A stretch of 64,000 nucleotides of DNA, from assembly GCA_048938105.1 (NCBI GenBank), contig JBHLMN010000022.1:44170-108169 (forward strand), written 5' to 3'. Of the stretch, positions 1,281 through 53,665 are shown piece by piece. Numbering within the stretch: the stretch's first letter is position 1; every line of letters starts with the position of its first letter. The position numbers and the translations under genes were made by a program. Source of the DNA: Promethearchaeota archaeon. Its GTDB lineage: Archaea > Asgardarchaeota > Heimdallarchaeia > Hodarchaeales > Hodarchaeaceae. Below the pieces are notes generated by a model. It saw only the letters and a program-made list of their open reading frames with translations. It searched no databases and was not told where the DNA came from.

Positions 1281-1313
1281 GTTTAATTACTCATGAAAAT
1301 CCGAATTGAAATC
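1281..1313 (+). repeat. Partial copy of the GTPase/HerA junction core (spacer + right arm + start of GTPase 3' end)
   Basis: gtttaatt-actcatgaaaat-ccgaattgaaatc matches gcttattt-actcatgaaaat-tcagaatgaaattc of other copies. Confidence 0.65.
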
Positions 1314-1788
1314 AGCAGGAAGAATAAACATTATTATGTGGAGCCAGTTTTTATTGAGAATTTCTTCAACAATTTTGCTTCATCATTGACCTTTGTCTGA
1401 TCTAGTTCATCTACAGATATTCCAAAGAGAGAAATTTCAACAGTATCGCTATCAAACCATGCGAAGGTGATAACGGTTGAGTGCGTCGTTTTGATAGGTT
1501 TCATTATTTTGTACGACAGTAATGACGACATTATCCTTCTTTCTGCCAGTGTCAGCTTGGCGATGAGCCGCAATGATCGCCTCTAATCGATAGTGTCTAT
1601 CGATCACGAGAACTCACCTATACTAAAATGGTTCTTCTTAACAAATATAACAAAAAGTCCATATATCAATGTGAAATAGTAAGTTCCCACAGGATTAAAT
1701 TAGTTGTGCTTTAATGACTTATTTATTAATGATTAATGTCCATTTTGGAAAAATTAAATAAGAAGCAGTCTAGAAAATATTATATTCT

Positions 1789-4674
1789 TTGGAATTTACT
1801 AAATGTGATAGGTTCAATCACTTTCTTCTTATGAAATGTGGACAGGGTGATAAAATGGGACGAGGTCACACTTTTAAGGAGAAAACAAGAATATTATTGC
1901 AAGTGTTACGAATTAATCTCAAGAAATCCTTGATAACACTTGTTGGAATGACAATTGCACTTGCAATAATCACCGCAAGTCTAATTTACTTGGAATCAAA
2001 TGAAATAGACTATTATATAGGAGTTTTAAAGAACTCAGAGTTTGAAAAGCAGCTCATATTTCATGTTTATGGAGATTCAGAGGGAAATTACTCTTTTAAA
2101 GACATCACTTTGATTCAAAACGCTGTTAATGAAAAAATTACAGAATTTAACTTGAATAATACTATTATTCAATCAAACTATCCATTTCAATGTAGAATGA
2201 ACAGAAAAATACTGTTTCGAAACACAAGTGAATTGCATTATTTTCGTGGAATCAGTATGGATGAGTCTATAATCAAAGATTGTGTGAAAGGGAGTAAAAT
2301 TCCAGGTACACCCGATGAAGTGCTTATTTTTATACCTAGTAATGACCCAATTGAGCTAGATATAAACGAGACTATCCATTTTTCACTCTTCTATGAGGAA
2401 AACAATAACGAAAAATCACACAATATTAGTCTGAAAATTTCAGGAATGTTAACTGCTTCAAGTATTCGTTCTTCCTCTCAATTATGGTATATGGTGAGTG
2501 AGCATAATAGAATTCAAATCATCATGAACATAAAGCAGTACTTAGAGTTACTGAACACCTTAAGGACACTATCTGATGAAACTATTTCAAATAGGCTCGA
2601 GTTGTATTATTCCTTTGACTTTTCCACGGTGAATCACCAAAATGCCATCCAAATAATTGATAGATTACTTGAATTCGGTCGGATGGGTTGGGATTTTCAA
2701 ATTCAGGTTGTGACTCCTCGTGAATCAACGTGGTATGATATTTACATATCTTCAATGTCATGGTATTATATGATTCAAGATAGTGTTAGTAAATTTAGTA
2801 TGTTTTTCTTCCTTTTTACAGTCCTTTGTATTCCTGCTTTTATCATCACCTTTCTGTTAGTGAATTTTTCACTTGGAGTAATCAATGAAGGCAGAAGAAA
2901 AACCCTTACTCTATATAAAATGAGAGGGGTTTCGAAAAAATTTATTTTAACCATGTTATGTGTGGAAATATTGAGCCTTGCATTTATTGCCTCAATATTA
3001 GGATTAATTCTGGGATTACCTGTTTATTTCTTGATATCAACTACAACTGGCTATCTGAGCTTCGATTTGACAAAATGGCCAAATTTTACAATCGTTTCTC
3101 AAGCTACTGTTACGACTGTAATTGGATTCAGTTTGTGTTTCACCTTCCTTTTACATCTTAGTGCAATAATCAAGCTCGTTAATGCAAGAATTGTCCATTT
3201 GGAAGAAGAGGCAAGTAAGAAGAAAAAACGGAAGAGAGGAACTATCCGTCAAAATATTGATATTTTCTTACTATCTCAAGGAATAATTGGTATTCTTCTT
3301 CTCAACCTACTAATGGAAATTTTATATGAGACTGGTATGATAGAGAGTGGATTAGCTGTTTACTTTATGGGATTTATTTTCATATTTGCCTTTTTAAGTC
3401 CATTATCTCTCTTAGTTGGATTCATTTTCGCATTTAATAGATTAATGCCAGTCATGTTGGAAAAATTAGGTGGTTTATTATGGAAAAAGGACTTTAAATT
3501 TCTGGCTGTGGCAACTCGTAACTTATTTGTGAACATAAAGTTAACCACACGTACAACCCTGCTAATAGCTGTTACTGTCAGTTTTTTAATGATTTTGTCT
3601 TCGCTTCCCCTCTCATTAAATCAACATATCATTAATACGACTTATTATAAGGCTGGAAGTGATCTTGTTATTCAAACATGGGATTTGGTTGATGAAAATG
3701 CTATTAGGAATCTTTCAACCAAATTACATGAACTTCCTGGTTTAACTACGACGCTTGTTTCATTTAATGATTATGGGGAAATTGAAATTATGGGTATTGA
3801 AGATAATTTTGATAATGTGGCATTTTGGAAGTCACATTATGCAAAACAACCCCTCAGTAATCTCGTATCAGCACTTTATAGCTCTAAAAGTCAATTTCCA
3901 GTAATTATTGACTCCTCTTCCGCGAGAATTGAAAAGATAACTGTCAATGATAATTATCTTCTCAACTTAGATAATCAAAATCCTCTGAGCTTGACAATTG
4001 TAAGTAAAACAGACTATTGGCCAGGGTTAATTGAGAGACATCGGGATGAGGAAAGATTTCTAATTATTAAAATATCAAATTATTTTGATTTGATAAGCGA
4101 GGATGATTCCTATATTTGGTGTAAAATCGATCCAAGTTTCGATAAGGATGAAGTTCTTGAACAGGCTAAAAATGTAACCCTGGGATTAGGGGTCGATATT
4201 AGGAGCTTTCATCCTACCACTGAAAAATTAGATTTAGATCCAAAGTCTCTTGAAGTGAATTTTCTTTGGATCATCACAAATTTTAATTTCCTTGTTGCTC
4301 TCTTAGTGTTATTACTCTTTTTATTTTTGTTTACAATAACACGTATCACAAACCAATTGAAAGAAATTGGATTAAGTAGAGCATTAGGAATGAAATTTCA
4401 CCAAATCTTTCTCCTAATGTTCATTGAACCCTTTCTATTGGTTTTAATAAGTGGTTTACCAGGAGGATTAATCGGTTTAGGATTATTAATGACCGTCATA
4501 AATTTCGGTCAAGGACCCCCATTCAGCTATGATCCTCCATTCATTTTAATGATTGATTTTCCATCTATTTTCCTTATTTTTGGCTCAATTTTAATCACAG
4601 CAGTCATGTCTGGATTTATTACCTCGTACCGAGCAACTAGAGCCGATGTGTCTAAGATTCTCAAAGTGGAGTGA
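1789..4674 (+). CDS. FtsX/MacB-type ABC transporter permease (true start may be 1855)
   Basis: Two FtsX TM domains (RRKTLTLYKMRG; KEIGLSRALG) with extracellular loops. Confidence 0.85.
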   Translation: MEFTKCDRFNHFLLMKCGQGDKMGRGHTFKEKTRILLQVLRINLKKSLITLVGMTIALAIITASLIYLESNEIDYYIGVLKNSEFEKQLIFHVYGDSEGNYSFKDITLIQNAVNEKITEFNLNNTIIQSNYPFQCRMNRKILFRNTSELHYFRGISMDESIIKDCVKGSKIPGTPDEVLIFIPSNDPIELDINETIHFSLFYEENNNEKSHNISLKISGMLTASSIRSSSQLWYMVSEHNRIQIIMNIKQYLELLNTLRTLSDETISNRLELYYSFDFSTVNHQNAIQIIDRLLEFGRMGWDFQIQVVTPRESTWYDIYISSMSWYYMIQDSVSKFSMFFFLFTVLCIPAFIITFLLVNFSLGVINEGRRKTLTLYKMRGVSKKFILTMLCVEILSLAFIASILGLILGLPVYFLISTTTGYLSFDLTKWPNFTIVSQATVTTVIGFSLCFTFLLHLSAIIKLVNARIVHLEEEASKKKKRKRGTIRQNIDIFLLSQGIIGILLLNLLMEILYETGMIESGLAVYFMGFIFIFAFLSPLSLLVGFIFAFNRLMPVMLEKLGGLLWKKDFKFLAVATRNLFVNIKLTTRTTLLIAVTVSFLMILSSLPLSLNQHIINTTYYKAGSDLVIQTWDLVDENAIRNLSTKLHELPGLTTTLVSFNDYGEIEIMGIEDNFDNVAFWKSHYAKQPLSNLVSALYSSKSQFPVIIDSSSARIEKITVNDNYLLNLDNQNPLSLTIVSKTDYWPGLIERHRDEERFLIIKISNYFDLISEDDSYIWCKIDPSFDKDEVLEQAKNVTLGLGVDIRSFHPTTEKLDLDPKSLEVNFLWIITNFNFLVALLVLLLFLFLFTITRITNQLKEIGLSRALGMKFHQIFLLMFIEPFLLVLISGLPGGLIGLGLLMTVINFGQGPPFSYDPPFILMIDFPSIFLIFGSILITAVMSGFITSYRATRADVSKILKVE

Positions 4675-6250: not shown

Positions 6251-6360
6251 ATTAGACTATTCATGTGACATATTGAATGAATAGATATAGAAGTAAAGAA
6301 ACTTCAGAAGAAGTAGAGGAGTGGCGATGATACCTTCGTTGAATTTAATAAACAGGACTT

Positions 6361-6561
6361 GTGAACTTGAATAAGAAAAAAGGTGTCGGAGTAATTCTAT
6401 CTGTAATTGGAATTATTATAATGTTTATTACTAGTTCTATAGAAAGAGAGTTTCTTTCATTTGAACAATTTCTTTGGATATCATCTGGATTAATTTTGGG
6501 AATTGGTCTTTCTCTTCTTTTTTCCTTCTCTTTATTCCAAAAAAAAGAAGGCAATTCTTGA
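6361..6561 (+). CDS. Small two-TM membrane protein
   Basis: Two hydrophobic helices; a decayed second copy lies at 13330-13530. Confidence 0.65.
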   Translation: MNLNKKKGVGVILSVIGIIIMFITSSIEREFLSFEQFLWISSGLILGIGLSLLFSFSLFQKKEGNS

Positions 6562-6718
6562 TAGTAATAGATTGTTAAGATCCCAGTTATAGAAGATGTC
6601 TGTTATTGTCCTCTTTTTCTTGGAATCGCTATCAAAAATCAAAAAAAGTAAATGGATTGGAACACCTTTTTGAAAGAATATCTTTGGTAAATAAGATTCT
6701 ACTCCTCTATAACACCTC

Positions 6719-13124: not shown

Positions 13125-13329
13125 ATAAAACAATCATTACTATTATAGAAAATAGCATTTCAAGAGGTAGAAGTCTAGAAATTTAAAATATTCACAAGTT
13201 CCTGGTTATAAGTAATTATATCAAATTGGAAGTACAGTGGCTCTTGAAAGAATCATTCAAGGTGACTGGGAGGAATATCTCCAGAATAAGCTCCCCACTA
13301 TATCAAACAAGTTATATTAAACAGGACTT

Positions 13330-13530
13330 GAGAACTTGAATAAGAAAAAAGGTGTCGGAGTAATTCTATCTGTAATGGGGATTATTCTAATGTTTATTAC
13401 TAGTTCTATAGAAAGAGAATTCTTTTCATTTGAACAATTTCTTTAGATATCATCTGGATTAATTGTGGGAATTGGTCTTTCTCTTCTTTTGAACTTTTCT
13501 TTATTCCAAAAAAAAGAAGGTAATTCTTAA
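13330..13530 (+). pseudogene. Decayed copy of the small membrane gene 6361-6561
   Basis: Colinear near-identity; GTG>GAG at the start and in-frame TGG>TAG at 13444-13446. Confidence 0.9.
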
Positions 13531-13547
13531 TAATAATAGTAGAAAAC

Positions 13548-13603: not shown

Positions 13604-13758
13604 GGAAAGATGACATAGGGTTACTCCTAGGAGGGGTCTCTCCAAGGAAGAATGCGAGATGAGGACTCACTCCACCTAAATATTGCATGAGTGCTTCTTT
13701 ACTCATGAATATTTCAATTGAAATTCATATATGGTCTTGTTTTTGTAATACCTCAATC
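13604..13758 (-). repeat. HerA 5' relic + full junction core (13664-13712) + GTPase 3' relic
   Basis: Matches 39242-39350 and the GTPase end near 53654-53693. Confidence 0.9.
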
Positions 13759-21029: not shown

Positions 21030-21276
21030 AATTAAGAAATGCTACAATTTCACGAAAATTGTTAAAGCAAAAGAAAAAGTCAAACAAACCCCCTAATTCT
21101 CCGTAATTGAGCTGTGCGCCAAAAATCACCGCGAAATTCGCATTGACTTCAATCACAATCCTCCAAACACCATAGTAGAGGAAGGAATCCTTCATATGAG
21201 TAGGCCAAATAATCAAGTAGAAAAGCTTTCAACCTTAAAATTGTTAAAAATCATCATGCACATTGTCCACTTTTGT

Positions 21277-21459
21277 ACTCATGTTAATTCAGATCTATAG
21301 ATGAAAACTTGTTTTTGTAATACCTTAATCGCTAGATCATAAAAAATTGTATCGATAGTTTTTTTGTCGGTTAGGTTGGACTCATAATACGAAACTCCTA
21401 ATTCTCTCGCTAAATTCTGGCCCTCTTCTGTTATTACAGTTCCTGATTCAATAATGAAC
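21277..21459 (-). pseudogene. Rab-like GTPase 3' relic with degenerate core right arm
   Basis: Encodes TVITEEGQNLARELGVSYYESNLTDKKTIDTIFYDL, similar to the C-terminus of 53656-54177. Confidence 0.9.
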
Positions 21460-23258: not shown

Positions 23259-23650
23259 AGAGGATTTTTTCGAAGTGGAAAGAGGGGGTCGTTTTACTCA
23301 TGGGAGGGGCTTCTCCAAGGAAGATTTTGATATGAGGACTCACTCCTCCTAAATTTTCCTCAGATGCTTATTGATTCATGAAAATTCAGAATGAAATTCA
23401 TATATCGCCTTTTTTTCGTAATACCTCAATAGCTAAATCATGAAAAATGGTTTCAATAGATTTTCTCTCAGTTAGGTTGGACTCATAATACGAAACTCCT
23501 AATTCATTCGCTAAATTCTGGCCCTCTTCTGTTGTTACAGTTTCCGATTCAGTGATAAACCCCAGGATCGCAATCGGAACTGAAGATTCAGGAATTTGAT
23601 GAACTAAATTTCTTATTCAAATCTTTAACGGCTTTGAACGATGCCCTATC
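23259..23650 (-). repeat. HerA 5' relic + junction core (23337-23385) + long GTPase 3' relic
   Basis: Colinear with 39224-39350, then with 53666-53910; frameshifted. Confidence 0.92.
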
Positions 23651-23716
23651 ATCATAGTATGGGGGGGAAAGCCTGATCTGAGGCTGTTTTCGATGGTTAT
23701 GACTTGCGGTGTCAAG

Positions 23717-25030: not shown

Positions 25031-25173
25031 CTTCTATATATATATTTAGCTAGAGTTCGAGTTAATCATTTACATAGTTTCATAATCTGCAGAAACAATT
25101 CTGGGTAAATGAACATCAGAAGGGAGGAGAACATAGAGTTAGGAACCGAAAAATATCTATTTGGGGTCATCAG

Positions 25174-25510
25174 TGGTAAGAATTTCTTGAATGGGATTAA
25201 AAAACATCTCTTGATAAGAAGCTCGTAATTGACTCTGAAACGGACGGTGGGACAACTCCTAGAGGGAAATCTGCCCATTGATCGAAACGATACAACGGCG
25301 TTCGTCGCGTTTGGCTTTCAAGAGCTGACGTAATTGCTCATATTCATTCCGAGGGAAGCCCAAGAGGTTTGCAATGTCAAAGGGATTGAATGCTTATTTA
25401 CTCATGAAAATTCAGAATAAAATTCATATGTCGCCTTTTTTTCATAAAACCTCAATAGCTAAATCCTGAAAAATGATTTCGATAGTTTTTCTGTCAGTCA
25501 ATTTGGACTC
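25174..25510 (-). pseudogene. Collapsed HerA-GTPase copy: HerA 3' relic fused directly to the core (25392-25411) and GTPase 3' relic
   Basis: 25174-25391 matches 37118-37383 with a gap; then gcttatttactcatgaaaattcag... of the GTPase end. Confidence 0.92.
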
Positions 25511-25648
25511 AAAAAAAGGAAATTAACAAGGAAATTTCTTTTTCTCAGATAACCTTTTTAGATGATCAAGCAACATGAATAGAAGTAAGATTTATTCAAT
25601 GGGTTGGACATGGGAAATGAAATTATTCATACTGGAGCAGTTTAGATA

Positions 25649-30457: not shown

Positions 30458-30527
30458 TCATTCTTTGGTCAAAATTTCTCGAATGGGATCAAAATACAAC
30501 TGTTGATAGGACTCACGTAATTGTTTC
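30458..30527 (-). pseudogene. HerA 3'-end relic convergent with RDD
   Basis: Matches 37110-37179 including the stop; a weaker similar relic is at about 29726-29757. Confidence 0.88.
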
Positions 30528-35451: not shown

Positions 35452-35725
35452 CAGTATCCAAGCCTTTCTTGCGAAACCACCCATGTTCCAAAGGACTTAT
35501 GTAGATGTGGATCGATTTCGGATCAAAAATGGCATACTTCAACGAAAAGGTTTCTTTGACATGCTGGAAGACGTTAATACTGGAACGATCAACATTAAGA
35601 GGAATGTGTGCAAAGTGGAAAGAGGGGATCGTTTTTCTCATGGGAGAGGCCTCTCCAGAGAAGAAATCACTAAGGTTACTCACTCCTCCTAGGTATGGAA
35701 AAAGCGCTTATTTACTCATGAAAAT
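35452..35725 (-). pseudogene. HerA N-terminal relic + junction core (35677-35725)
   Basis: SPMRKTIPSFHFAHIPLNVDRSSINVFQH...WFRKKGLDT versus the intact HerA N-terminus. Confidence 0.93.
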
Positions 35726-35955
35726 GATTTCATCGTGAGATAAACCTTTTTTAAGGCTCAAAGAGCTATTAACCTGTAGTTGGGATTTGGTTCAAAAGGG
35801 AAACCACCTTGAGGTATAGTAAAGTGGTTCTCATTTTAATGCTTTTCATTTGTCTAGTTGTCTGTGGATTATCCCAAGAGCTTCCCTTTACCCCTGAAGA
35901 CCAGAAAAATTTCTTATCTTGGGTCATCCTTGGGACAGATAAATACCATTTGTAA
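35726..35955 (+). pseudogene. Promoter + signal-peptide relic of a CASH cassette gene
   Basis: Matches 39351-39525 and 51835-52012; TTG 35809 gives MRYSKVVLILMLFICLVVCGLSQELPFTPEDQ..., stop at 35955. Confidence 0.9.
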
Positions 35956-36873: not shown

Positions 36874-37109
36874 TAATAAAAAAATATAAATAATATGAAA
36901 AGGATGTATGAGGATAATTAAAGGAGGAAAAAGCAAGGCCGTTAATGTGTATTGTTTACTTACACTGGATAAAGACAGTGAACGAAAAGTGAAGGCGAAA
37001 AAGCATCATATTAAACCTTATTCCCAATGTTGATCATCCTACAAGAATATCAGCTAGGGGAGCACAAGCCAGAGGCACCATTAATAAACTAATTACTCCT
37101 CAAGGAGAA

Positions 37110-39326
37110 TTATTCTTTGGTCAGAATTTCCTGAATGGGATCAAAATACAATTGTTGATAAGAGTCACGCAATTGTTTCTGAAATGAAAGATTAGATAAT
37201 TCATCTAAATCCATAGACAAGTCAGGATCTAAGAGAAACTCATTAGTCTTCAAGAGGGAAATCTGACCGTTGACCGAAATGATACAGCGGCGTTCATCTT
37301 GTTTAGCTTTTAATAATTGACGTAATTGCTCATATTCATCCTTTGGAATACCTAAGAGATTCGAAACCTCGAAAGGGTTGAATTTCGTGAAGAAAAGAGT
37401 CAACAGGCCAGTGTTTGTTAACATAGGTTGGTCAATAATAGGTTCCGTGCCAATAAAAATCATAGAAATGTCATATGCACGTAAGGTCCAAGGGCCACGT
37501 CCAATCATAGATTCAGGAGATTTCGAACGGAAATTCTTCGCAGGAGCGAGCTTTTGGATCTCATCCAACACGAAGACATTTTTCGGCAACGATTCTTCTT
37601 TGAAAGGAGCTCGAAAGGTACGAACATAATAATATAAATTCTGAAAGACCACATTTAGAAAAATCTCCCGCCCGCTTTGATCCTCCATAGCCTCAAAGGC
37701 AGAGAGGTCAATAATGGCATTCCGATCAAGGAGGTTGGCAACCTCAAAGGTGGTCTTTGATACCGTGAAACACCGCCCCGTATTACCAAAGAAGAGTTTT
37801 TCGACACGATTCAAGATGCCTGTCGCAGTATTCTCAAGATAAGCCCCCTTCATTCCCAACTCATCGGGATTCTCCAGATAGAAAAGAAACCTCCGAAAAT
37901 CCCCCTGATCTTTCACTGTTTGAATAACAGTAAGATGAAGCATCCGCCGCATCTGGGGAGATACAGCATCCTCATTATCAAAAATATGTTCTAGAATGGA
38001 GACCGCAAATTGGATATGGTCTTCAACAGGGATAAGAGGTTGACCTGCATCATTCAGAGGAATTTGGAAGATATTAATCCCCCAAGGGAAGGAGGCAGAC
38101 CCAGGCTTTAAGTAGAGAAAATCATCACAAAAAGTCCTAACAGGGGAAAGATACTCCCCTTTCGGATCAAAAATGAGAAATTTGACCCCTTTTTGGTGAA
38201 ATTCGTTGATTAAACCATAAATGAAACGACTTTTGCCCTCACCTGTCATACCAAAAACAGCCATGTGCCGACAGAGGTCTTTCCCGTCAATTAATAAAGG
38301 AACATTAGAGGTTTTGCCGCTAATAATGGGAATCCCAAGGTTGATGGCACGTTGAGGAGAAGTTTCACTTATACCCGTGGATAAGGTGTAATCAGATTTG
38401 TTGGGGACGAGAGTATACCCCTCGTGGGAGAATTGCCGCTGAGGAGGAGCAATGAAACTCATTAGAGACGAACCATCCAAAGTAATGGGGGACACCAGCT
38501 TTCTGGAAACACACAACTTCCTGAGGGAAGGAAAACGTCTGAAAAAAGTGGGATAAGAGCGAGCTTTAAGTCCCTTAGAGACAAATAAGACAGATAAACG
38601 ATTAAGCTTGGCTTTTAACAACTCAGGACTGGTTTCCACAACTAAAATCCGAGGAGAGAAGCGAAAACAACCAGCTTCCTCCATGATGTTCATTCGCTGA
38701 GGTTGGAAACGGCGTTCGACTTTACCCTGTTGAATATCAAAACGGACATGACTCAGATGCCGTTCCTGATCATCATCAGATTGGAACTTCTTGGGGACTT
38801 TGATGGATTTGAAGACAAATTGAAGAAAAGCAAATTGAGGATTGTCCGTCAAAATTTCAAGCAGATGATCAGTGAAACCATCAGCTGTGGTAAAAGGAGG
38901 TTCTGCAGTGCCCTCTAAACCAAGGATTCCTCCACAGAAAAAAGTAGGGCCATCTGTACTAACCTGAAAAGACTTAGTCAAAAGGTCAAGAAGCACATGA
39001 ATCGGGGTGGGTTCAATCTTGTGAAAGTCAGGATGTAAGCCCATGGCAATAGCAAACTGCTGAATGGTGGCGATACCAGTATCTAAGCTTTTCTTGCGAA
39101 ACCACCCGCGTTCAAGGGGACACATGTGGATGTGGACAGATTTTGGATCAAAAATGGTATACTCCAACGAAAAGGTTTCTTTGGCATGCTGGAAGATGTT
39201 AATACTAGACCGATCAACATTAAGAGGAATGTGTTCGAAGTGGAAAGAGGGGATCGCTTTGCTCATGGGTGAGGCCTCTCTAAGGGAAAAATCGAGTTGA
39301 TGACTCACTCCTCCTAGGTATTGCAT
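37110..39326 (-). CDS. HerA/FtsK/VirB4-like P-loop ATPase (DUF87 type)
   Basis: RHMAVFGMTGEGKS Walker A, IFDPKGEY, FVLDEIQ Walker B; true start probably a little downstream of 39326. Confidence 0.88.
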   Translation of the reverse strand: MQYLGGVSHQLDFSLREASPMSKAIPSFHFEHIPLNVDRSSINIFQHAKETFSLEYTIFDPKSVHIHMCPLERGWFRKKSLDTGIATIQQFAIAMGLHPDFHKIEPTPIHVLLDLLTKSFQVSTDGPTFFCGGILGLEGTAEPPFTTADGFTDHLLEILTDNPQFAFLQFVFKSIKVPKKFQSDDDQERHLSHVRFDIQQGKVERRFQPQRMNIMEEAGCFRFSPRILVVETSPELLKAKLNRLSVLFVSKGLKARSYPTFFRRFPSLRKLCVSRKLVSPITLDGSSLMSFIAPPQRQFSHEGYTLVPNKSDYTLSTGISETSPQRAINLGIPIISGKTSNVPLLIDGKDLCRHMAVFGMTGEGKSRFIYGLINEFHQKGVKFLIFDPKGEYLSPVRTFCDDFLYLKPGSASFPWGINIFQIPLNDAGQPLIPVEDHIQFAVSILEHIFDNEDAVSPQMRRMLHLTVIQTVKDQGDFRRFLFYLENPDELGMKGAYLENTATGILNRVEKLFFGNTGRCFTVSKTTFEVANLLDRNAIIDLSAFEAMEDQSGREIFLNVVFQNLYYYVRTFRAPFKEESLPKNVFVLDEIQKLAPAKNFRSKSPESMIGRGPWTLRAYDISMIFIGTEPIIDQPMLTNTGLLTLFFTKFNPFEVSNLLGIPKDEYEQLRQLLKAKQDERRCIISVNGQISLLKTNEFLLDPDLSMDLDELSNLSFQKQLRDSYQQLYFDPIQEILTKE

Positions 39327-39350
39327 GAGTGCTTATTTACTCATGAAAAT
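39302..39350 (+). repeat. Junction core, best-preserved copy (12-8-12 inverted repeat at 39319-39350)
   Basis: GACTCACTCCTCCTAGG TATTGCATGAGT GCTTATTT ACTCATGAAAAT. Confidence 0.9.
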
Positions 39351-39433
39351 GATTTCATCGTGAGATAAACCTTTTTTAAGGCCCCAAGAGCTAAGACCAA
39401 TAGTCTGGGATTTGGATCAAAAGGGAAACCACA

Positions 39434-42400
39434 TTGAAATGGAGTACCACAGTTCTCATACTAATGCTTTTCATTTGGCTATTGGTCTGTGGAAAAAGCC
39501 AAGAGCTTTCATTCACCCCTGAAAATCAACTCTCTAATGGTCAGGCTGCTGATCCTCGGTTTGGTAATTCCAAAATACATCAATACACTCCCCATGATCC
39601 CATTATTATTACAAGAAATAGTGATTTTGCCTCCCAAGGATATCCTGGTTCAGGAACTATTGATGATCCATATTGGATTAAGGGATTTAATATTACTTCT
39701 CCTGATGGTGATTTAATTGCCATTAGTGATACTACTGCATATTTCTGTATTGCTAACAACTATCTCAATGGATTATCCACAGCGTGGGGAGGTATCGTCC
39801 TGAACAACGTTATTAACGGAATAATCGAAGACAATCTCGTGTTAAACCATGAATATTTAGGAATAGTGACTTATTCCTCATCCAATATTGTTATAGTTAA
39901 CAATATTGCTTTCAATAATGGTTTGAACGGAATTCGACTTGAAATGGAATCAAATAATAACCTACTTGAAAACAATACTGTTCTGGATAACAAAGCAGAT
40001 GGGATTTGGATGGGAATTTCATGTAACTATAATAGGATTATCAATAATACGGTCTATGCTAACATTGGGATTGGAATCTATTTTGGTTTGGAAGATTTTT
40101 CATATACTGGGTGTAGTGATAGCTTCATTTTCCGTAATTTTATTTACAATAACAGCTATGGCATAAAATTCGAGTCTTCAGATAATAACATAATCATTGG
40201 TAATAAAATTTCCAATAATACTCATCATGCCATTTATCTTGACGCTACGTCTGATAGTAACAGAATAGCAATTAATAATTTTTTTAACAATAATCTAGGG
40301 GAGCAGTCTCAAGCTTATGACGATGGAGCTGCCAATGTAATTTTTGCAAATCATTGGGACGACTGGATCACACCAGATGACGATGGAGATGGGATTGTCG
40401 ACGCCCCCTACAATATCAGTGGTCTATCAACAACACAAGATGGATTTGCACATGTATCTGCTATCATACCGCACAGCGACATTTCTATTGATGGAGATGC
40501 GATGTTTCATGCTACTGCGGCTGCCGAAAATTGGCCTGGGAACGGAACCTTGTCAAATCCCTATATCATTGAGAGACTTATCATGATTGACATAAGGAAT
40601 CGGACATTGATTGAAATTGCCAACACAAGCATCCATTTTCAAATAAGAGACAGCTTACCTTGGGGAGGATCTATCGTTTTCTCTAAGGTTTCACATGGAA
40701 TAATTCACAATAATACTATGGTTCGGAGTGGGATAGCCATTTATTCCTCCAGAAATTGTACCGTGTCAGATAATTTAGTAACTGGTGACTCAGGAGACGG
40801 AATACACCTCCTAAACTCCAATCACACATCCATTCTTAGTAATCAAGTGTTCAATAATCAAGGTCAGGGAATTTCCATTGACACCTCTTGGGATAGCACC
40901 ATCTCTGGAAATACTGTAAACAACAACAACGAAGACGGAATTCGCTTTAAGGATTCTACAGCCATTATTATTTCTAACAACACGGTTTCCCAAAACGGGG
41001 TTGGAATTTATCTTGGGAGTTCTAATAATAGCACTATTTCTAACAATATAGTCACCGACAACAAACACAATGGAATTTTTCTTGAGGATTCATCTAATAG
41101 CGCTATTTCCAACAATACAATCACTGGTTCTCCGTGGAGTGGAATTCGGCTATTAAATTCTAGTGAAAGTACCTTGGGAAATAATTCGATCACCGAATGT
41201 AGTGATGGAATTTCGGTTGATGAGTCGGAAACACTCACCCTGACCAATAATATGGTCACTAGCAACAGTGCGGATGGAATTGACCTTTTTTATTCAGGGA
41301 ATAGCATCCTATCGGGGAATATGGTCTCTAATAATGGTGGTAATGGATTTAATATTTTTGATTCAGAGACCAGTGTTCTGACTGCCAATACAGCCTCTAA
41401 TAACAATGACCTTGGAATTTTTCTTAGAGATTCTACAGACATTACCCTTTCCAACAATACAATCAAGAGCAACAGCGGTGGAATTTTTCTTTGGTATTCT
41501 GGGAATAACACACTTGTGAGCAACACTATCACAAACAATGGAAACATAGGAATAATCCTTGCTACTTCCAAAAACAATACGATTTTAGATAATATTTTGG
41601 TAAATAATGATCTTTTCATCGGGCATGCCGAAATTAATTGGGATATGCATGTGACATCTCCTACTCTAACTGATTATTTTCAAGCTGATGTAATGAACAA
41701 TTCTATAAACGGGAAACCGCTCGTATATTGGCAACATGCTGCAGGTGGAACAATACCAGCTGGAGCTGCCCAGGTCATTCTGGTGAACTGTACGGCAGTA
41801 ACAGTGGCGAATCAAGATCTTTCAAATGTCTTGTTTGGTTTACAAACGATTTCCAGCTCATGCGTGTCCATCTTAAACAATGTCATAGTTAATACTAGTA
41901 TATCTGGAATCTATCTTCTAGATTCTATTAATAGCACGATTGCTGATAATAAAATTACACACAACTATGGACTTGGAATTTTTCTTCAGGATTCTAATTC
42001 TAGCGCTATTTCCAACAATACGGTCACCAACAACAGACACAATGGAATTTTTCTTGAGGATTCTAACAATAGCAATAGTTCAAAGAATGTTGTCACCGAC
42101 AATGATGGTCATGGATTTTATCTTGGGAATTCTAAGAATTGTATGATTTCATCAAACATTATTTCTTACAATCGTGGAAAGGGAGTCGAAGTTAATGATT
42201 CTACCAACATCATCATTTCCAGCAATACCATCTCTAGTAACGACAATGGGATTCATCTTGAGAATTCATGCAATAGCGTTATCTCTGACAATACAATAAA
42301 CTACAATGAGGAAGACGGAATTCTATTTAGGGCCTCGGAGAATAGCACTATTTCCAACAATACGGTATCCAATAACATGAAAGGAATTATTCTTGGGGCC

Positions 42401-43021
42401 TCTGGGAATTGTGTTATTTATAACAATACAATCACTGACCATGATTTTCAGGGAATCGAAATTCATCGTTCTACAGCTATTACTATTTCCAACAATATAG
42501 TCTCCAACAACGACAACAATGGAATTATCCTTGAGAATTCATCCAATAGCGTTATTTCTGACAATACAATAAACTACAATAGCGGAAACGGAATTGTATT
42601 TTGGTACGATGAAATCTTAATTTCTAAAAATAACTTAATTTCTCATAATACAGTGTCTAACAATAGTGGATATGGTATTTTTATAGGTGGATCATCTAAG
42701 TTTTGCAATGTATCGTGGAACATTTTTAATGGGAATAATCGTGAGGGAACATCTCAAGCTAAAGACGATGGAAGAAATAATACCTTTGAACATAATTACT
42801 GGGACGATTGGACGGAACCCGACACGGACGGGGATGGGGTTGTTGATACACCTTATGATATTGATGGTGATGCAGAGAATCAAGATATGTACCCACGCGT
42901 TTCTCCAAATCCTGTTTCCACCCCATTTTTGAGCGAAAATATCCTCATGGGGTTAGTTTTTCTCGTACTCATCCTTCCTGTCCTGGGGATCTTAATTCGC
43001 AAGCAGAAGAGAAATTTTTGA
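39434..43021 (+). CDS. Large multi-domain NosD/CASH surface protein
   Basis: Signal peptide, several PbH1 blocks, NGKPLVYW, NYWDDW, TM + RKQKRNF. Confidence 0.92.
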   Translation: MKWSTTVLILMLFIWLLVCGKSQELSFTPENQLSNGQAADPRFGNSKIHQYTPHDPIIITRNSDFASQGYPGSGTIDDPYWIKGFNITSPDGDLIAISDTTAYFCIANNYLNGLSTAWGGIVLNNVINGIIEDNLVLNHEYLGIVTYSSSNIVIVNNIAFNNGLNGIRLEMESNNNLLENNTVLDNKADGIWMGISCNYNRIINNTVYANIGIGIYFGLEDFSYTGCSDSFIFRNFIYNNSYGIKFESSDNNIIIGNKISNNTHHAIYLDATSDSNRIAINNFFNNNLGEQSQAYDDGAANVIFANHWDDWITPDDDGDGIVDAPYNISGLSTTQDGFAHVSAIIPHSDISIDGDAMFHATAAAENWPGNGTLSNPYIIERLIMIDIRNRTLIEIANTSIHFQIRDSLPWGGSIVFSKVSHGIIHNNTMVRSGIAIYSSRNCTVSDNLVTGDSGDGIHLLNSNHTSILSNQVFNNQGQGISIDTSWDSTISGNTVNNNNEDGIRFKDSTAIIISNNTVSQNGVGIYLGSSNNSTISNNIVTDNKHNGIFLEDSSNSAISNNTITGSPWSGIRLLNSSESTLGNNSITECSDGISVDESETLTLTNNMVTSNSADGIDLFYSGNSILSGNMVSNNGGNGFNIFDSETSVLTANTASNNNDLGIFLRDSTDITLSNNTIKSNSGGIFLWYSGNNTLVSNTITNNGNIGIILATSKNNTILDNILVNNDLFIGHAEINWDMHVTSPTLTDYFQADVMNNSINGKPLVYWQHAAGGTIPAGAAQVILVNCTAVTVANQDLSNVLFGLQTISSSCVSILNNVIVNTSISGIYLLDSINSTIADNKITHNYGLGIFLQDSNSSAISNNTVTNNRHNGIFLEDSNNSNSSKNVVTDNDGHGFYLGNSKNCMISSNIISYNRGKGVEVNDSTNIIISSNTISSNDNGIHLENSCNSVISDNTINYNEEDGILFRASENSTISNNTVSNNMKGIILGASGNCVIYNNTITDHDFQGIEIHRSTAITISNNIVSNNDNNGIILENSSNSVISDNTINYNSGNGIVFWYDEILISKNNLISHNTVSNNSGYGIFIGGSSKFCNVSWNIFNGNNREGTSQAKDDGRNNTFEHNYWDDWTEPDTDGDGVVDTPYDIDGDAENQDMYPRVSPNPVSTPFLSENILMGLVFLVLILPVLGILIRKQKRNF

Positions 43022-43157
43022 GGTAAAATATACGACATAAAAAGCATTTAAGCCTCAAAAAGCTACAACCCGTAATTTGGGATTAGGTCCAAAGGTGATT
43101 CTCTGGGGAAAAAAAAAAAGGTATTTCTCAAAAAAAGGGATGAGTATGTGATATGCA

Positions 43158-43206
43158 GACTCACTCCTCCTAGGTATTGAAAAAGCGCTTATTTACTCAT
43201 GAAAAT
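43158..43206 (+). repeat. Junction core copy
   Basis: gactcactcctcctaggtattgaaaaagcgcttatttactcatgaaaat. Confidence 0.9.
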
Positions 43207-43240
43207 TCGCAGGAAGTGTAAACAGTGAATAAGCTATATG

Positions 43241-44941: not shown

Positions 44942-45142
44942 TCCCCTTCAACTTGTTACTCCGACTTTCTTGATAAATAGGAAGATAGGAAAAACTTCCC
45001 ATTATTATTTTAATTCTGATCAAACACATTACTTTGAGTTTTATTATAACAACCCTAATGAATACTGTCTAAGGATAATCATTAAATGATAATTAAAAAG
45101 AGCTCCTTGGTTCTAGTCATTTTTTTTTTCTTTATGACTCTT

Positions 45143-45380
45143 TAGTCCTATTAGCTTTCACTTATACTTTACGAGACCAATTTAGGACAAAAACCTGAAC
45201 AAGAATACAAGATGGGTGTATTCGGATTGAAATTTACAGGTCGCCTGTGTTTCGTAAAACCTCAATCGATAAATCATGCAAAATTGTTTCGATAGTTTTT
45301 CTGTCAGTTGGTGTAGACTCAAAATACAGAACTCTCAACTCATCCGCTAATTCAGGCCCTCGTCAGTTGTTACAGTTTCC
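45143..45380. pseudogene. TM-tail relic (+) fused to GTPase 3' relic (-)
   Basis: 45143-45225 matches about 21533-21615; 45221-45380 matches the GTPase C-terminal coding region. Confidence 0.85.
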
Positions 45381-45406
45381 CTTACATGAATTATTATTAA
45401 GACGGA

Positions 45407-46753
45407 TTAAATCCTTAAGTTGTAATGGAGGGTGTCTTGTAAATCTTGGATTTCTGCAATTGGAACTTGATTCACATGTGTCAGGGGATTATCGGTTAGA
45501 ATAACATATTTTAAAGCGGGACAGGAGTCTAGCGGGGAGAGATCAATGGTTTCCAACGAATTCCTATTAAAGAATAACTCCCATAACGACGGATGATTCC
45601 TGAACGGGGATAGATCAATGGAGGTAATAGCATTATCACCCAACCTGAGTTCACGAAATTTAGGACAGTGCTGCAAGGGGGAAAGGTCTATGGTCTGAAA
45701 ACGATTGTGGCTCAAGTCGAGATCTTTGAATTCAGGTAACTGTGCCAACGGGGAAAGGTCAAGAGCGGTTAATTCATTGTCTTTCAATGAAATTTCTTCT
45801 AGATGGTCACAATTTCTGAGGGGGGAGAGGTCAAGACTTTGAAGTCCGTTATTAAATATAGTTATATCTTCTAGACTGTTTTTCGGAGGCATGGGGGGTA
45901 ACACAACGGATGTCAAGGTTCTTAAAGAAAGAATTCCAATATATCTTAGGACAGGGAGGTGAGCTAATGGGGTCAAGTCAAGAGTCTGAAAATCGGTTCC
46001 TTCCGATAATTCGAAGTGGGTCAATTTCTGACAATATCGAATCAGGTCAAAACAGACCATATCAATGATGTTCAAGTTTTCAGGGATCTTGAATTCGGTG
46101 ATATCTCGTGTTTCCTTGAGTGGTTCCAAGGAGATGTACGGAAAGTCAAGGAATACATTCTTAATGAATGTTTCTTCAATGATCCGTGTAGGTGGGAAGA
46201 ATCTTTCCATGAACAGAGTACACGGGACATAAGCATTCCCTGTTTCTTCATCTCGAATGACCCGATAATCAGTAAATGTTGAGATAAGGCGCGCCTGATC
46301 AATAATCTCAGATAATGTCAGGTCAATCTTCTCTGGTATTTCGGGATAAATAATCAATTGACTCTTTCGCCCAAAGACATACCCGCTATATTTTATTTCT
46401 AATTCTTCTGGATCAAAGATTGTTTCTGAGATTGGCATCCAAACAGGTCTTTCTAGAACTTCGTTGATAGAGATCCGTTCATAGTTTTTCTTCATCTTTT
46501 CTTTACTAATCGTGGTTAAGGGACAAAGATAAAATACTAGATCCTGGTCACGGTATTCTAACACGGTATACAGATAATTCGTGGGATCGCCGAGATTCAC
46601 GTTGAGTTCTTGGGCGACTAATGTGGCAATGATAGAATCATCTTTGTCATACCGCAATTCACGCCTTGTTTGAGCAATCTTCTCGCTTATTTCCGCCTTC
46701 GAGAGTTGTTTCTGTTCGTGGATCTTCCTGATTACCTGTTCCTTACTCTGCAT
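45407..46753 (-). CDS. LRR protein with DUF2240/RPA-N-like helical N-terminus
   Basis: LDLSPL repeats; N-terminal I..KI....LS..EI...I.....L......IA.LVAQELNV; paralog of 55647-57083. Confidence 0.85.
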   Translation of the reverse strand: MQSKEQVIRKIHEQKQLSKAEISEKIAQTRRELRYDKDDSIIATLVAQELNVNLGDPTNYLYTVLEYRDQDLVFYLCPLTTISKEKMKKNYERISINEVLERPVWMPISETIFDPEELEIKYSGYVFGRKSQLIIYPEIPEKIDLTLSEIIDQARLISTFTDYRVIRDEETGNAYVPCTLFMERFFPPTRIIEETFIKNVFLDFPYISLEPLKETRDITEFKIPENLNIIDMVCFDLIRYCQKLTHFELSEGTDFQTLDLTPLAHLPVLRYIGILSLRTLTSVVLPPMPPKNSLEDITIFNNGLQSLDLSPLRNCDHLEEISLKDNELTALDLSPLAQLPEFKDLDLSHNRFQTIDLSPLQHCPKFRELRLGDNAITSIDLSPFRNHPSLWELFFNRNSLETIDLSPLDSCPALKYVILTDNPLTHVNQVPIAEIQDLQDTLHYNLRI

Positions 46754-47020
46754 CCCGAGCCCTCATGCTACGCGTTTTCCACCCATACCTGCTTGAGTTG
46801 AATATATTTTTGATCATTCTGATGATTGATCTCAACTTCTCTTACCTCCATAAATACCCTTTGTTTTTATGTCTGCTATGGTGATTTGTCTCTATCACGA
46901 ATCAGTTCAGTCATCCAATAGTATAAGGGGCCAAAGAACATCCCAAAAAGTCCGACCACGAAAAGTACAGGGGAGACTAAGGTAAGGTCAACTCCATAAA
47001 CGAATTCCCAATAAGATCGC

Positions 47021-47163
47021 GAGGAATGTGTTCGAAGTGGAAAGAGGGAGTCGTTTTACTCATGGGAGGGGTCTCTCCAAGGAAAATTCTACGATGTAGC
47101 TTACTCCTCCTAGGTATTGCAGAGGTTCTTATTTACTCCTGAAAATTTCAATTGAAATTCAGA
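47021..47163 (-). repeat. HerA 5' relic + junction core (47098-47146) + GTPase end
   Basis: gaggaatgtgttcgaagtggaaagaggg...actcctcctaggtattgcagaggttcttatttactcctgaaaatttcaattgaaattc. Confidence 0.9.
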
Positions 47164-47508
47164 TCCCACCAAATATAGTTTTCATTTGCATTTCCAACGA
47201 AATCTTTTGGAAACAATGGAAACGAGAAGAATGAGGAAAAGTAAACTGAAGGAAGAAAAGGGTAACGAAAAGGAGGCTGGTTGATAGTGGTAGACATCAG
47301 ATCAGACCTCAGGCCATGTACTATAGATTTTGGAGGATGAGACATGGAACTCTTCTATGATATCGTCTACATCAAGGAGCACCCACGTGTCAACGGTACA
47401 TGGTAGACAGGTGAAGTTTTCACCCCAATATTGGTACGGGAAGGTAATATGAAAGAAGACGAAAAACTACTATACTGGAACTCGTCGTTGTATCCCTGAA
47501 AGCGTACC

Positions 47509-51341: not shown

Positions 51342-51905
51342 TTATTGAAATGGATATAATAGTCTAGTATTTGTAGCATAATTTATAAACTTTTTACCAT
51401 AAATTATCAATATACGATGTTCTGTAAACCTAAAATGCTTCTAGTTTAATTTTCCTATTGAAGATTGGCATTATCAATTTCTTCTTTCACGGTATTCACT
51501 CCCATAGCTTAAATTTTAATGAATAGTATAAAAATGTCAATAGAAAGGTTTAACACGATTGTTCTCTGCTCAAAAGCTTGAAATATTAATTTATTTAAAA
51601 GAAATTCCAATTAAAGAAGTTTGAAACTGTATTCAAAAATTACTTTCTTATTGCCTAAGTTCCTGAAGAGAAAATAGTAGTAACCTCTGTCCCCCAATAT
51701 CATATAAACCCAATCACCACGTACTTCGGATCTCCAATCAAATGCGTGGGTGAAGAAAAAACGAAATCATTGAGGAAAGTGGCAACATTGAATGACCTAT
51801 CTTCTGATTAAAGTGATTATTTACTCATGAAAATGATTTCATCGTGAGATAAACCTTTTTTAAGGCTCAAAGAGCTATAACCTCTGATTTGGGATTTGGA
51901 TTGAA

Positions 51906-53483
51906 ATGGAAACCACATTGAAATGGAGTATCGCGGTTCTCATAGTAATGCTTTTCATTTGGTTATCTGTCGATGAATTATCCCAAGAGCTTCCATTTAC
52001 CCCTGAAGACCAATTCTCGGATGATCAGGCCGCTCATCCTCGTATGAGTACATCCAAAATCCACCAATTCAATCCCCATGAACCCATAATCATTGAAGAT
52101 GATTATGGTTTTGACTCTCAGGGATTTCCTGGCTCAGGAACCATTGATGATCCCTACCGCATTGAAGGTTTTAATATCACATCTTCCAATGGAACCTCAA
52201 TCGTAATATCTAGGACAGAAAATTATTTTTGCATTAGAAATAACTTTCTTCATGGATTGTCTTCAGCAGAATTCGGTATTGAGTTTTCAGGAGTTGAGCA
52301 TGGTACAATCGAAAATAATATTGTGACAAATTATTCAACCTCTGGAATAACTCTTAGGGGTTCAAATAATAATGTTATTATAAACAATACAATTACCAAC
52401 AATGACGGCACTGGAATTTATCTTCAAGATTCTGAGAATAACACTATATCCAACAACACGATCTCCAACAACGATAGCACTGGAATTTTCCTTGATTCCT
52501 CTGTGAATAACTTTATTTCCGACAATAGCGTTTTCAACAATGATGGTGGAATTTACCTTTGGAAAATTCGGGGGGCATATTCTCTTCCTGGATATAATAT
52601 TATTGTCAACAATTTTATCGCCAACAACGAATGGACTGGAATATCCATCTATGATTCTGCAAGCAATACTATTTTGGATAATATATTGATGAATAATGGC
52701 TTTCAGGTGCAGGGTGGGTTATTGAGATACTTTTTTCAGACTGAAGTGAGGAATAACACAATCAATGGAAGAGCACTGATCTATTGGCAAAACATTATTG
52801 AAGAAACAGTTCCTCGTGGAGCGGGTCAGATCATTCTGGTTAATTGTACGGCTGTGACTGTTACCAACCAGAACTTATCAGATGTGGAAACCGGCCTTGG
52901 AGTAATTTCCAGCGATAAGTTGTCTATTTTCAACAATACAATTGTAAACAACTGCGACCACGGAATTCACCTTTGGGACTCTACAGCTAATTCTATTTCC
53001 AGAAACACAGTTTCCCACAACGGAATTGGAATTTATCTTGAAAATTCATACAGTAGCACTATTTCAAACAATATATTCTCTCATAACGGGGTAGGAATTT
53101 ATCATCAGGAGTCTGAGAACAGCGTAATTTTCAACAATACTTTTTCCAATAATCACGGGTATGGCATTTCAATACTTGATAGGTCTTCGTTTTGCAATGT
53201 CTCATGGAACATTTTCATTGGAAACAACCCTAATGGCACCTCTCAAGCATATGACGCAAGCCTGAATAATACATTTAACCAGAACTACTGGGACGATTGG
53301 GTCGGGGACGACCCCTATCCGATTGATGGTGTTGCAAACAATCGAGATAGGCATCCACAAGGTGCTCCTAATCGGGATTCTGCTTCTTATTGGAGCGAAA
53401 ACATCCTCGTGGGGTTCTTTCTTTTCGTAGTAATCCTTCCTGTCTTGGGGATATTAATTCGCAGGCAGAAGAGAAATTTTTGA
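51906..53483 (+). CDS. NosD/CASH surface protein, short allele of 39434-43021 (start may be TTG 51918)
   Basis: Shared signal/first domain and SENIL..LILPVLGILIR.QKRNF-type tail; divergent, shorter interior. Confidence 0.92.
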   Translation: METTLKWSIAVLIVMLFIWLSVDELSQELPFTPEDQFSDDQAAHPRMSTSKIHQFNPHEPIIIEDDYGFDSQGFPGSGTIDDPYRIEGFNITSSNGTSIVISRTENYFCIRNNFLHGLSSAEFGIEFSGVEHGTIENNIVTNYSTSGITLRGSNNNVIINNTITNNDGTGIYLQDSENNTISNNTISNNDSTGIFLDSSVNNFISDNSVFNNDGGIYLWKIRGAYSLPGYNIIVNNFIANNEWTGISIYDSASNTILDNILMNNGFQVQGGLLRYFFQTEVRNNTINGRALIYWQNIIEETVPRGAGQIILVNCTAVTVTNQNLSDVETGLGVISSDKLSIFNNTIVNNCDHGIHLWDSTANSISRNTVSHNGIGIYLENSYSSTISNNIFSHNGVGIYHQESENSVIFNNTFSNNHGYGISILDRSSFCNVSWNIFIGNNPNGTSQAYDASLNNTFNQNYWDDWVGDDPYPIDGVANNRDRHPQGAPNRDSASYWSENILVGFFLFVVILPVLGILIRRQKRNF

Positions 53484-53616
53484 GGTAAAATATACAACAT
53501 AAAAAGCATTTAAACCTCAAAAAGCTACAACCCGTAATTTGGGATGAGGATCCAAAGGTAATTCTCTGGAAAACAAAAAAGGAATTTCTCAAAAAAGGAT
53601 GAGTATGTGATATGCA

Positions 53617-53665
53617 GACTCACTCCTCCTAGGTATTGCTTGAATGTTTATTTACTCACGAAAAT
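53617..53665 (+). repeat. Junction core copy overlapping the GTPase stop codon
   Basis: gactcactcctcctaggtattgcttgaatgtttatttactcacgaaaat; TCA at 53656-53658 is the GTPase stop. Confidence 0.9.

Follow-up and report, generated by a model that had tools for sequence, protein, structure and literature searches.

A Co-oriented Array of HerA-GTPase Junction Copies in a Hodarchaeales Genome, Probably Left by Serial Segmental Duplication

Introduction

Short sequence elements that separate variable genes are familiar from several systems: integrons and the clusters of attC sites lacking integron-integrases (CALINs), the integrative mobile elements exploiting Xer (IMEX) and the pdif modules of Acinetobacter, the orphan modules of contact-dependent inhibition (CDI) and Rhs loci, and the vsp, vsa, and vpma loci of Mycoplasma. 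Integron arrays and CALINs were reportedly found in Archaea as well, by Ghaly et al. in 2022. Here we describe an array of similar appearance in a Promethearchaeota genome of the order Hodarchaeales (GenBank assembly GCA_048938105.1; 5.85 Mb in 65 contigs). The window analysed comprises 64,000 nucleotides and is the final 64 kb of the 108-kb contig JBHLMN010000022.1 (contig C37; negative coordinates denote positions on this contig to the left of the window start). Within it a 49-bp element recurs in a single orientation among surface-protein and other genes, and the initial annotation saw in this an integron-like capture platform served by a recombinase in trans. We arrive at a different explanation: probably, though by no means certainly, the copies are promoter and leader relics of a gene for a HerA-type ATPase, produced by serial segmental duplication and reshuffled by ordinary recombination at a near-identical patch.

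As in integrons and CALINs, a co-oriented short element punctuates heterogeneous genes, and as in CALINs there is no adjoining integrase. Yet here the sequence and not a folded structure is conserved, R'/R'' boxes are absent, and the units between copies are multigene segments of 2–12 kb in both orientations, with variable remnants of the native flanking genes; moreover, the element appears to have a host role in front of the HerA gene. With IMEX and pdif modules the array shares short sites that bound modules, the lack of a recombinase of its own and one arm that is better conserved than the other. However, dif-type sites are built as 11-6-11, whereas the element here comes no closer than 12-8-12 and its left arm is not conserved; pdif sites occur in alternating orientations while all copies here are direct repeats, and the element is not unique per chromosome as dif is.

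In the orphan (displaced) modules of CDI and Rhs loci, co-oriented fragments of a conserved gene part likewise separate variable genes, and these fragments are made by duplication or displacement together with homologous recombination, with no dedicated recombinase. The repeated part here is, in contrast, a promoter junction with two gene ends rather than the constant region of one gene, and the cargo consists of surface proteins rather than toxin-immunity pairs. The vsp, vsa, and vpma loci of Mycoplasma resemble the island in having surface-protein genes whose common conserved upstream block is the place of recombination. Those loci, however, have an adjacent Xer-like recombinase and inverted sites, and inversion switches expression, whereas the copies here are direct repeats with no adjacent recombinase and many of them are not upstream of a gene. 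Aloposons use tRNA sites and carry giant genes (PMC8813620) and were for these reasons set aside as unrelated.

Distribution of the Repeated Element

The right arm of the element, the 12-mer ACTCATGAAAAT, has 12 matches with at most one mismatch in the window, all on the plus strand, against a mean of 1.4 and a maximum of 4 in 100 shuffles. Ten of these, together with a degenerate copy at 21277 that has two mismatches (ACTCATGTTAAT), have a longer element in common; the matches at 23750 and 34768 are isolated words within open reading frames (ORFs), without the remaining element, and look like chance. Copy 21277 is weak by profile (nhmmer E 0.67); we nevertheless accept it, given the 86% identity of its right flank to that of copy 23374. 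All 11 positions given by the initial annotation (1289, 13701, 21277, 23374, 25400, 35714, 39339, 43195, 47135, 51823, and 53654) could thus be confirmed in the same orientation, as could the seven copies that retain ACTCC(T/A)CCTA.

A 34-nt profile searched genome-wide gave significant matches on the array contig only, all on the plus strand, between −19168 and 53665. Three additional copies lie to the left of the window. Copy −7653 was found by the same profile, −19168 is a weak profile match, and −12168, found by BLAST, has an 8-nt deletion inside the core; −19168 and −12168 are degenerate. The array totals 14 members across ≈73 kb. As significant copies are restricted to this contig, the element is no genome-wide motif, and a genome-wide regulatory motif was ruled out; in this point the initial annotation, which described a co-oriented array within an island, is supported. 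A known RNA family or a tRNA-linked att site was also rejected, with zero Rfam matches for the element and zero tRNA genes in the window.

For most copies the repeated sequence exceeds 49 bp, and repeat lengths range from 32 to more than 440 nt. The left extension of the repeat is the HerA 5' leader with the first codons. To the right, the repeat runs into the 3' end of a Ras-GTPase gene in some copies and, in others, into the leader of genes for beta-helix (NosD/CASH) surface proteins. Divergence between copies is 15–25%, and the units between them hold up to ≈8 genes.

The Native Junction

The resident copy of the element (39302..39350) precedes the start codon of the HerA gene by 36 to 84 nt. 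Read on the minus strand, it consists of ATTTTCATGAGT, a TATA-like AAATAAGC, a variable 9-nt patch, AATA and CCTAGGAGGAGTGAGT. The HerA-type ATPase gene (37110..39266, minus strand; the ORF extends to 39326) is the sole intact gene that touches a copy on the left. Alignment with orthologues places its true start at the conserved Met at 39266, giving a protein of 718 aa with a DUF87 central domain and weak matches to the DNA-translocating ATPases CedD, VirB4, and TraD-like proteins. The relatives compared were the other genomes of the genus (n = 20; G003, G008, G009, G011, G013, G014, G017, etc.), of which G003 is the closest. The ATPase family is present in 19 of these 20, the Heimdallarchaeota chromosome CP070695.1 being among them, and in hardly any genome outside the genus. 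To judge by its sequence, it is a HerA/VirB4/CedB-like ATPase specific to this Heimdall-type genus of the Hodarchaeales.

On the other side, the sole intact junction-type GTPase gene (53656..54177, minus strand; Ras family) touches copy 53654 on the right and ends, with its final codons and the TGA, within this copy (53634–53665). On the minus strand the TGA falls within ACTCATGA, and the last codons plus stop lie inside ACTCA(C/T)GA. An orthologue of this GTPase was found in G003 only (90% identity). The description of the site as a junction between a GTPase stop and a HerA start, made in the initial annotation, is therefore correct for this genome: the TGA is inside the element and the HerA start is downstream.

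Two further observations concern these gene families. G003 has a junction-type GTPase fragment or diverged paralogue at C184:5703-6083 (aa 1–127, 67% identity), which may represent the 5' part matching the 3' remnants described below. A second HerA paralogue of the present genome, at C18:127214-129358, is 70% identical to the resident and has no recognisable upstream element, and its counterpart in G009 retains a degenerate one.

Conservation of the Element Among Relatives

The core, (G/C)TTATTTACTCATGAAAAT, lies at a constant distance ahead of the HerA gene (≈70 nt; 68 nt for the resident copy) in orthologues and paralogues alike, down to a protein identity of 62%, and the sequence on either side of it is unalignable among relatives. 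The element is mostly single-copy in relatives, in front of HerA: the closed genome G009 has one copy in 160 kb around HerA, and G011 has one on its 53-kb HerA contig. Exact-word scans of metagenome and genome collections returned chance matches in unrelated organisms and loci matching the HerA loci of G009, G008-like and G017-like genomes.

A GTPase adjacent to HerA was not found in any relative, and no long ORF ends inside the element in relatives outside the lineage of G003 and the present genome, so coding constraint from an upstream gene was ruled out. The upstream neighbours in relatives are mostly co-directional genes with ends 24–220 nt before the element, and a general divergent (bidirectional) promoter is therefore unsupported. 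From its position and its conservation among relatives we conclude that the element belongs to the HerA gene unit as a conserved non-coding stretch.

Read towards HerA, the element shows conserved ATTTTCATGAG and TAAATAAG (AT-rich, 8 nt), nine nucleotides free of constraint, and then conserved AATA and CCTAGGAGG; leader and start codon follow. Archaeal promoters comprise an upstream region with the B recognition element (BRE), a TATA box, a proximal element and an initiator at usual spacings. The blocks fit this layout, and as putative counterparts of BRE, TATA box, proximal element and initiator they would make the element a HerA promoter: across species, the AT-rich 8-bp box keeps its distance from the one conserved gene that follows it, and the blocks are spaced as expected.

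Conservation is uneven within the element. Among the six longest copies of the array, 12 of the 12 columns of the right arm and 7 of the 8 spacer columns are conserved, compared with 6 of 12 in the left arm, where only one of the seven columns of the central GCATGAG is kept. Conservation is thus lowest in the left arm, and the arms and spacer follow this pattern in the relatives too. A perfect dyad, CATGAGT/ACTCATG, occurs only in copies 39339 and 13701 of this genome and in one G003 copy; the best dyad, 7 bp (12 bp imperfect) around 8 bp, is found in two of the 14 copies.

Two local features of the arms were also seen. Between TATT and the TATA-like box, a 13-nt patch (39319–39331, and in other copies too) occurs in discrete versions, one of which forms the perfect dyad with the right arm and another of which is the palindrome AAGCGCTT. 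Several of its bases change jointly, which would fit templated (quasi-palindrome) mutation or gene conversion in patches. In addition, the start of the beta-helix gene leader termed Ra (39351–39366; also at 35726 and 51835) is an inverted, slightly imperfect right arm (GATTTCATCGTGAGAT compared with ACTCATGAAAAT). The three copies with an Ra leader therefore carry a second hairpin-capable dyad at the flush joint.

Remnants of the Flanking Genes

Most copies retain pieces of the two genes that meet at the junction, with variable outer ends and pseudogene features, as duplication and decay of a gene junction would leave them. Overall, the HerA side ranges from ≈20 to 273 nt and the GTPase side from ≈2 to 520 nt, and two copies have internal core deletions. 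All copies described in the following are on the plus strand.

The longest HerA 5' remnant (273 nt, in-frame and N-terminal) belongs to copy 35714 (35452..35898), which continues on the right into an Ra leader and the stump of a beta-helix gene; 35452–35898 is 84% identical to 39077–39523. Copy 13701 (13604..13757) has 108 nt of HerA leader and 5' end, from which the start codon is lost, and ≈45 nt of GTPase 3' end. Similar leader lengths are seen in copy 23374 (23259..23653; 127 nt), which has a GTPase 3' remnant of aa 106–171 (≈215 nt), and in copy 47135 (47021..47164; 126 nt), which has 18 nt of GTPase end and lies 380 nt upstream of a minus-strand leucine-rich repeat (LRR) gene. Copy −7653, left of the window, has 158 nt on the HerA side and ≈2–4 nt on the GTPase side. 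The degenerate copy 21277 (21257..21459) has a GTPase 3' remnant of aa 120–167 (≈170 nt).

On the HerA side only ≈20–30 nt are left in copies 1289, 25400, and 51823. Copy 1289 (1269..1300) has no HerA leader, and its right side is 14 nt of GTPase end followed by a flank termed Rc2. Copy 51823 (51803..53483), also leaderless, continues into an Ra leader and a 525-aa beta-helix gene. The left side of copy 25400 (25169..25516) joins a HerA C-terminal pseudogene piece (aa 648–738, with stops), and its right side carries GTPase aa 143–166 (≈100 nt). At this joint, the one examined in detail, a 6-bp microhomology, TTGAAT, is present in both partners, which points to a microhomology deletion as the cause of the joint.

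Copies 43195 (43158..43206) and 53654 (53617..53665) are minimal, with 49 nt on the HerA side, and are identical at 45 of 49 positions. The former lies between convergent beta-helix genes, has ≈2–4 nt on the GTPase side and continues into an Rc2 flank; the latter abuts the intact GTPase (full gene, ≈520 nt). Only in the Ra class (35714, 39339, 51823) is the GTPase side replaced flush at the last base. Two remnants are on the minus strand and separate from any recognisable element: a HerA C-terminal piece (30461..30526; 22 aa, 91% identical to the resident) beside an RDD gene, and a GTPase 3' piece (45252..45443; aa 104–167, one stop).

Extra copies are also present in other genomes of the genus, and the process is therefore not unique to the present one, although its array is by far the largest seen among them. 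In G003, contig C180 carries a leader of at least 115 nt, the element and an intact GTPase, syntenic with 53.6–59.9 kb of the window. This orthologue of copy 53654 thus retains at least 115 nt of HerA leader, compared with 49 nt here, and at the orthologous GTPase junction the two genomes diverge ≈49–57 nt to the left of the element's right edge, outside the 32-nt core. On C110 of G003 a 75-nt leader and the element are followed by the Rc2 flank seen in copies 1289 and 43195, and on C204 the element, which has no leader, is flanked by a PIN gene and a beta-helix gene. G013 has a 54-codon HerA remnant with the element (C122), G014 a HerA 5' remnant, the element and the end of a beta-helix gene (C272), and G011 an element with a G009-like right flank (C72).

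Origin of the Copies and Their Cargo

The HerA N-terminal relic at 35452–35635 differs from the resident gene by a synonymous divergence (dS) of 0.29, with a ratio of non-synonymous to synonymous divergence (dN/dS) of 0.32, and dS is saturated against orthologues of other species. The leaders cluster by genome: those of the array are 74–82% identical to one another (copy 13701 is more diverged, 60–66%) and 58–72% identical to those of G009, G011, and G014, and the relic leader of G014 groups with the G014 resident. The relics are thus closest to the resident genes of their own genome and must be in-lineage paralogues, and import from other sampled species was ruled out. The GTPase relics have dS of 0.4–0.8 and dN/dS of 0.33–0.58 to the intact gene, and the G003 orthologue has dS of 0.19. 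These values suggest that the copies were functional for part of their history and that most date from around the split from G003 or from before it.

According to Pfam scans, the cargo on the array contig includes ≈10 NosD/beta-helix, three LRR, two FtsX, two tetratricopeptide repeat and two substrate-binding protein genes, together with zinc-ribbon and RDD proteins. Block homologies at the nucleotide level connect several of these genes, and the cargo is largely paralogous. The clearest case is a unit of Ra leader, beta-helix gene, ≈190 nt and the 49-nt element that occurs twice at non-adjacent places (39339–43206 and 51823–53665), with a homology that begins and ends at the element. In the first of these, Ra leader and a gene for a 1195-aa NosD/beta-helix surface protein span 39351..43021 on the plus strand, with copies of the element at both ends. 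The notion of site-bounded units in the initial annotation therefore holds in part: homology classes do change at or near the element, and one beta-helix unit stands twice between copies, but the cargo is largely paralogous. As the copies, too, are nearest to the residents of their own genome, both parts of the island are as expected from duplication.

These data could be accommodated as follows. The ancestral unit would have been the HerA promoter with the start of its leader, and in the lineage of G003 and the present genome a small Ras-like GTPase gene would have come to lie upstream, ending inside the element. The island would then have grown by repeated segmental duplication of the GTPase-promoter-HerA junction along with neighbouring surface-protein genes. 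If duplication was mostly tandem, the common orientation of the copies follows. Redundant HerA and GTPase copies would have been functional for a time and then eroded by variable deletions and insertions, leaving the 14 junction relics. In copies otherwise 15–40% diverged, the promoter core of 20–49 nt would have been the sole near-identical stretch, and homologous recombination, gene conversion and microhomology-mediated deletion would for that reason be expected to resolve there. Such resolution would explain the mosaic of flank classes without a dedicated enzyme while mimicking site-specific switching of flanks. The core may survive best either because it is still under selection or because divergence mostly accrued while each copy was a working promoter.

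Much younger events are visible as well. Two segmental duplications with 92–93% identity were found, one within the window (6346–6570 and 13315–13539) and one on the same contig (34096–34652 and 39198–39753 in contig coordinates). As these are far younger than the junction copies, duplication in the island appears to be ongoing.

Search for Recombinases and Known Site Types

The genome encodes three tyrosine recombinases (PF00589), on contigs C14, C56, and C45. No Phage_integrase (PF00589) match was found on the 108-kb array contig, so the search for a recombinase near the island, proposed by the initial annotation, yielded no tyrosine recombinase there. Pfam scans of ≈60 ORFs of the contig revealed no serine recombinase, transposase or other mobility gene, and the eight ORFs without an informative Pfam match (a 942-aa protein included) matched no NCBIfam family. 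G003, G013, and G014, which have extra cores, encode one Xer-like recombinase each, in keeping with one XerA-like gene per genome.

The site itself differs from known types. There is no IntI-type recombinase beside the array and, by eye, there are no GTTRRRY/RYYYAAC boxes. Integron cassettes are mostly single promoterless co-oriented ORFs with flush joints, whereas the units here are multigene and two-stranded and mostly end in HerA and GTPase remnants of variable extent. Likewise, an Xer/dif 28-bp site should have two recognisable 11-bp arms around a 6-bp spacer, the geometry known for archaeal dif (11-6-11; PMC2958812), whereas here the dyad is limited to two copies and half of the left arm is conserved. 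Nor does the island look like one with tRNA-type att relics: it lacks both integrase and tRNA, and its repeats are not of constant length. The proposed capture platform with a recombinase acting in trans is thus not supported. The element is a promoter-like block conserved in the genus, and the copies are in-lineage paralogues with remnants of unequal length in place of flush att joints, one of them with the TTGAAT joint. The variability of breakpoints relative to the core, which the initial annotation had regarded as speaking for plain tandem duplication and decay, is largely what was found.

Alternative Explanations

Several observations weigh against the origin of the array by duplication and ordinary recombination. 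At least five copies (−19168, −7653, 23374, 43195, and 53654) lie between convergent gene ends with nothing obvious to drive, and their cores are about as well kept as those of the others. The copies are old and yet still present. The variable left patch exists in a few discrete versions (e.g., TATTGCATGAGTG, TAT(T/G)GAAAAAGCG and T(A/T)TTCCTCAGATG) that are common to copies with different flanks and assort independently of both flanks. Finally, several flanks stop exactly at an edge of the 32-nt element, namely Ra on the right and copies 1289, 51823, G003 C204, and G011 C72 on the left, and such ends are not predicted by random deletion.

Because the convergent-end copies, the flush edges and the discrete versions of the left patch fit poorly, we grant a site-specific system a small probability. 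The 32-nt element, with its inverted arms and 8-bp spacer, would then be a recombination site that doubles as the HerA promoter, and a recombinase in trans would insert, excise and reshuffle multigene surface-protein units in an integron-like or dif-module-like platform of Hodarchaeales anchored on a gene junction. Candidates for the enzyme, with the same low likelihood, would be the XerA-like protein of the host or one of its two other tyrosine recombinases, and by analogy with FtsK, which assists XerCD, the adjacent FtsK/HerA-type motor might assist. The confinement of co-oriented copies to one island is in line with such a system, as are the perfect 7-bp dyad in the resident copy and copy 13701, the flush flank switches at element edges in three genomes, the beta-helix unit bounded twice by copies at both ends, the differing left sides of the orthologous GTPase junction in G003 and the present genome, and the well-kept cores without a nearby gene start. 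Against it, no recombinase gene was found on the array contig, conservation is poorest in the left arm, most copies and relatives lack the dyad, and the geometry differs from the 11-6-11 of Xer sites (PMC2958812). Variable-length remnants on both sides are unlike precise exchange, and the breakpoint relative to G003, at about −49 to −57, is outside the 32-nt element. In the public unitig-type contigs of the probable source run, which break at the copies, no joint between two cores was seen; a low-depth joint in run X3 (35621 to 47066) connects two leader copies outside the core and carries no weight either way, nor do the regions left uncovered in other samples.

Selection for regulation offers a second alternative, which we regard as decidedly unlikely. 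Duplication would have supplied the copies, and they would have been kept as working elements through which one transcription factor controls surface genes together with HerA. The much better conservation of the 20-nt core than of the adjacent leader in relic copies would be explained in this way, and some nine of the 14 copies have, on one side, a gene start no more than 500 nt away. Archaeal operators are often palindromes overlapping the TATA box, and TCATGA with the flanking ATTT/AAAT is a near-palindrome that overlaps the TATA-like box. However, the five convergent-end copies face gene ends only, and two copies have internal core deletions.

It is very improbable that the copies serve the neighbouring HerA/FtsK-type translocase as polar sequences for recognition or loading, comparable to the FtsK orienting polar sequences (KOPS) or the clt locus of Streptomyces TraB: the strict polarity of the copies, the constant linkage of the element to the ATPase gene in the genus and the weak matches of the ATPase to DNA-translocating ATPases would suit such a role, but this is an analogy only, the gene remnants in the copies show how the copies arose, and the second HerA paralogue (C18) has no element. 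An assembly artefact, in which repeats made the assembler chain unrelated segments, is hardly credible: the public contigs end at every copy, so that the order of segments rests on the original assembly, and the bin has 7% contamination, but each inter-copy segment was recovered in those contigs at even depth (11–17) with zero mismatches, the copies are too different from each other to be collapsed repeats, and G003 independently has the same junction types.

Other Features of the Window and the Genome

Three features of the window lie apart from the junction copies. The 942-aa protein without Pfam or NCBIfam match is encoded at 48513–51341 on the minus strand, 480 nt downstream (on that strand) of copy 51823. 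The stretch 58001–60000 is a compositional outlier (GC content 0.43, AT skew −0.43) and coincides with a group of ORFs for zinc-ribbon proteins whose frames overlap. A repeat-rich, beta-propeller-like protein (21675–23180) has a weak match to the Heimdall-CTERM sorting signal at its C-terminus, which fits surface display and a Heimdall-type host.

A second array was found on contig C8 of the same genome, where ≈20 co-oriented copies of ACAGACATCAGACCGAAC with conserved flanks and a spacing of 0.5–10 kb occupy ≈5–54 kb, the region with most Ras-GTPase paralogues. On the minus strand, a Shine-Dalgarno-like CGGAGGAA and a potential start codon lie close to at least one of these copies, which gives the motif the look of a promoter or 5' leader conserved among the members of a tandem gene family. 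This genome may thus tend to form tandem families that share a conserved upstream motif. A local repeat on C52 was also considered as a site and rejected as a coding repeat.

Implications for Genome Growth in Asgard Archaea

The large genomes of Asgard archaea are thought to have grown via both duplication and gene transfer. If the copies are indeed promoter and leader relics of serial duplication, the island is an unusually legible record of such growth, with one promoter junction copied at least 14 times in ≈73 kb and each copy marking a former unit. The site-specific alternative would, if true, amount to a new kind of archaeal gene-capture platform. The case for duplication would show that a short conserved regulatory patch can become the preferred place of crossover among diverged repeats and thereby imitate a dedicated recombination site, and it calls for caution with candidates for short-site cassette arrays in Asgard genomes.

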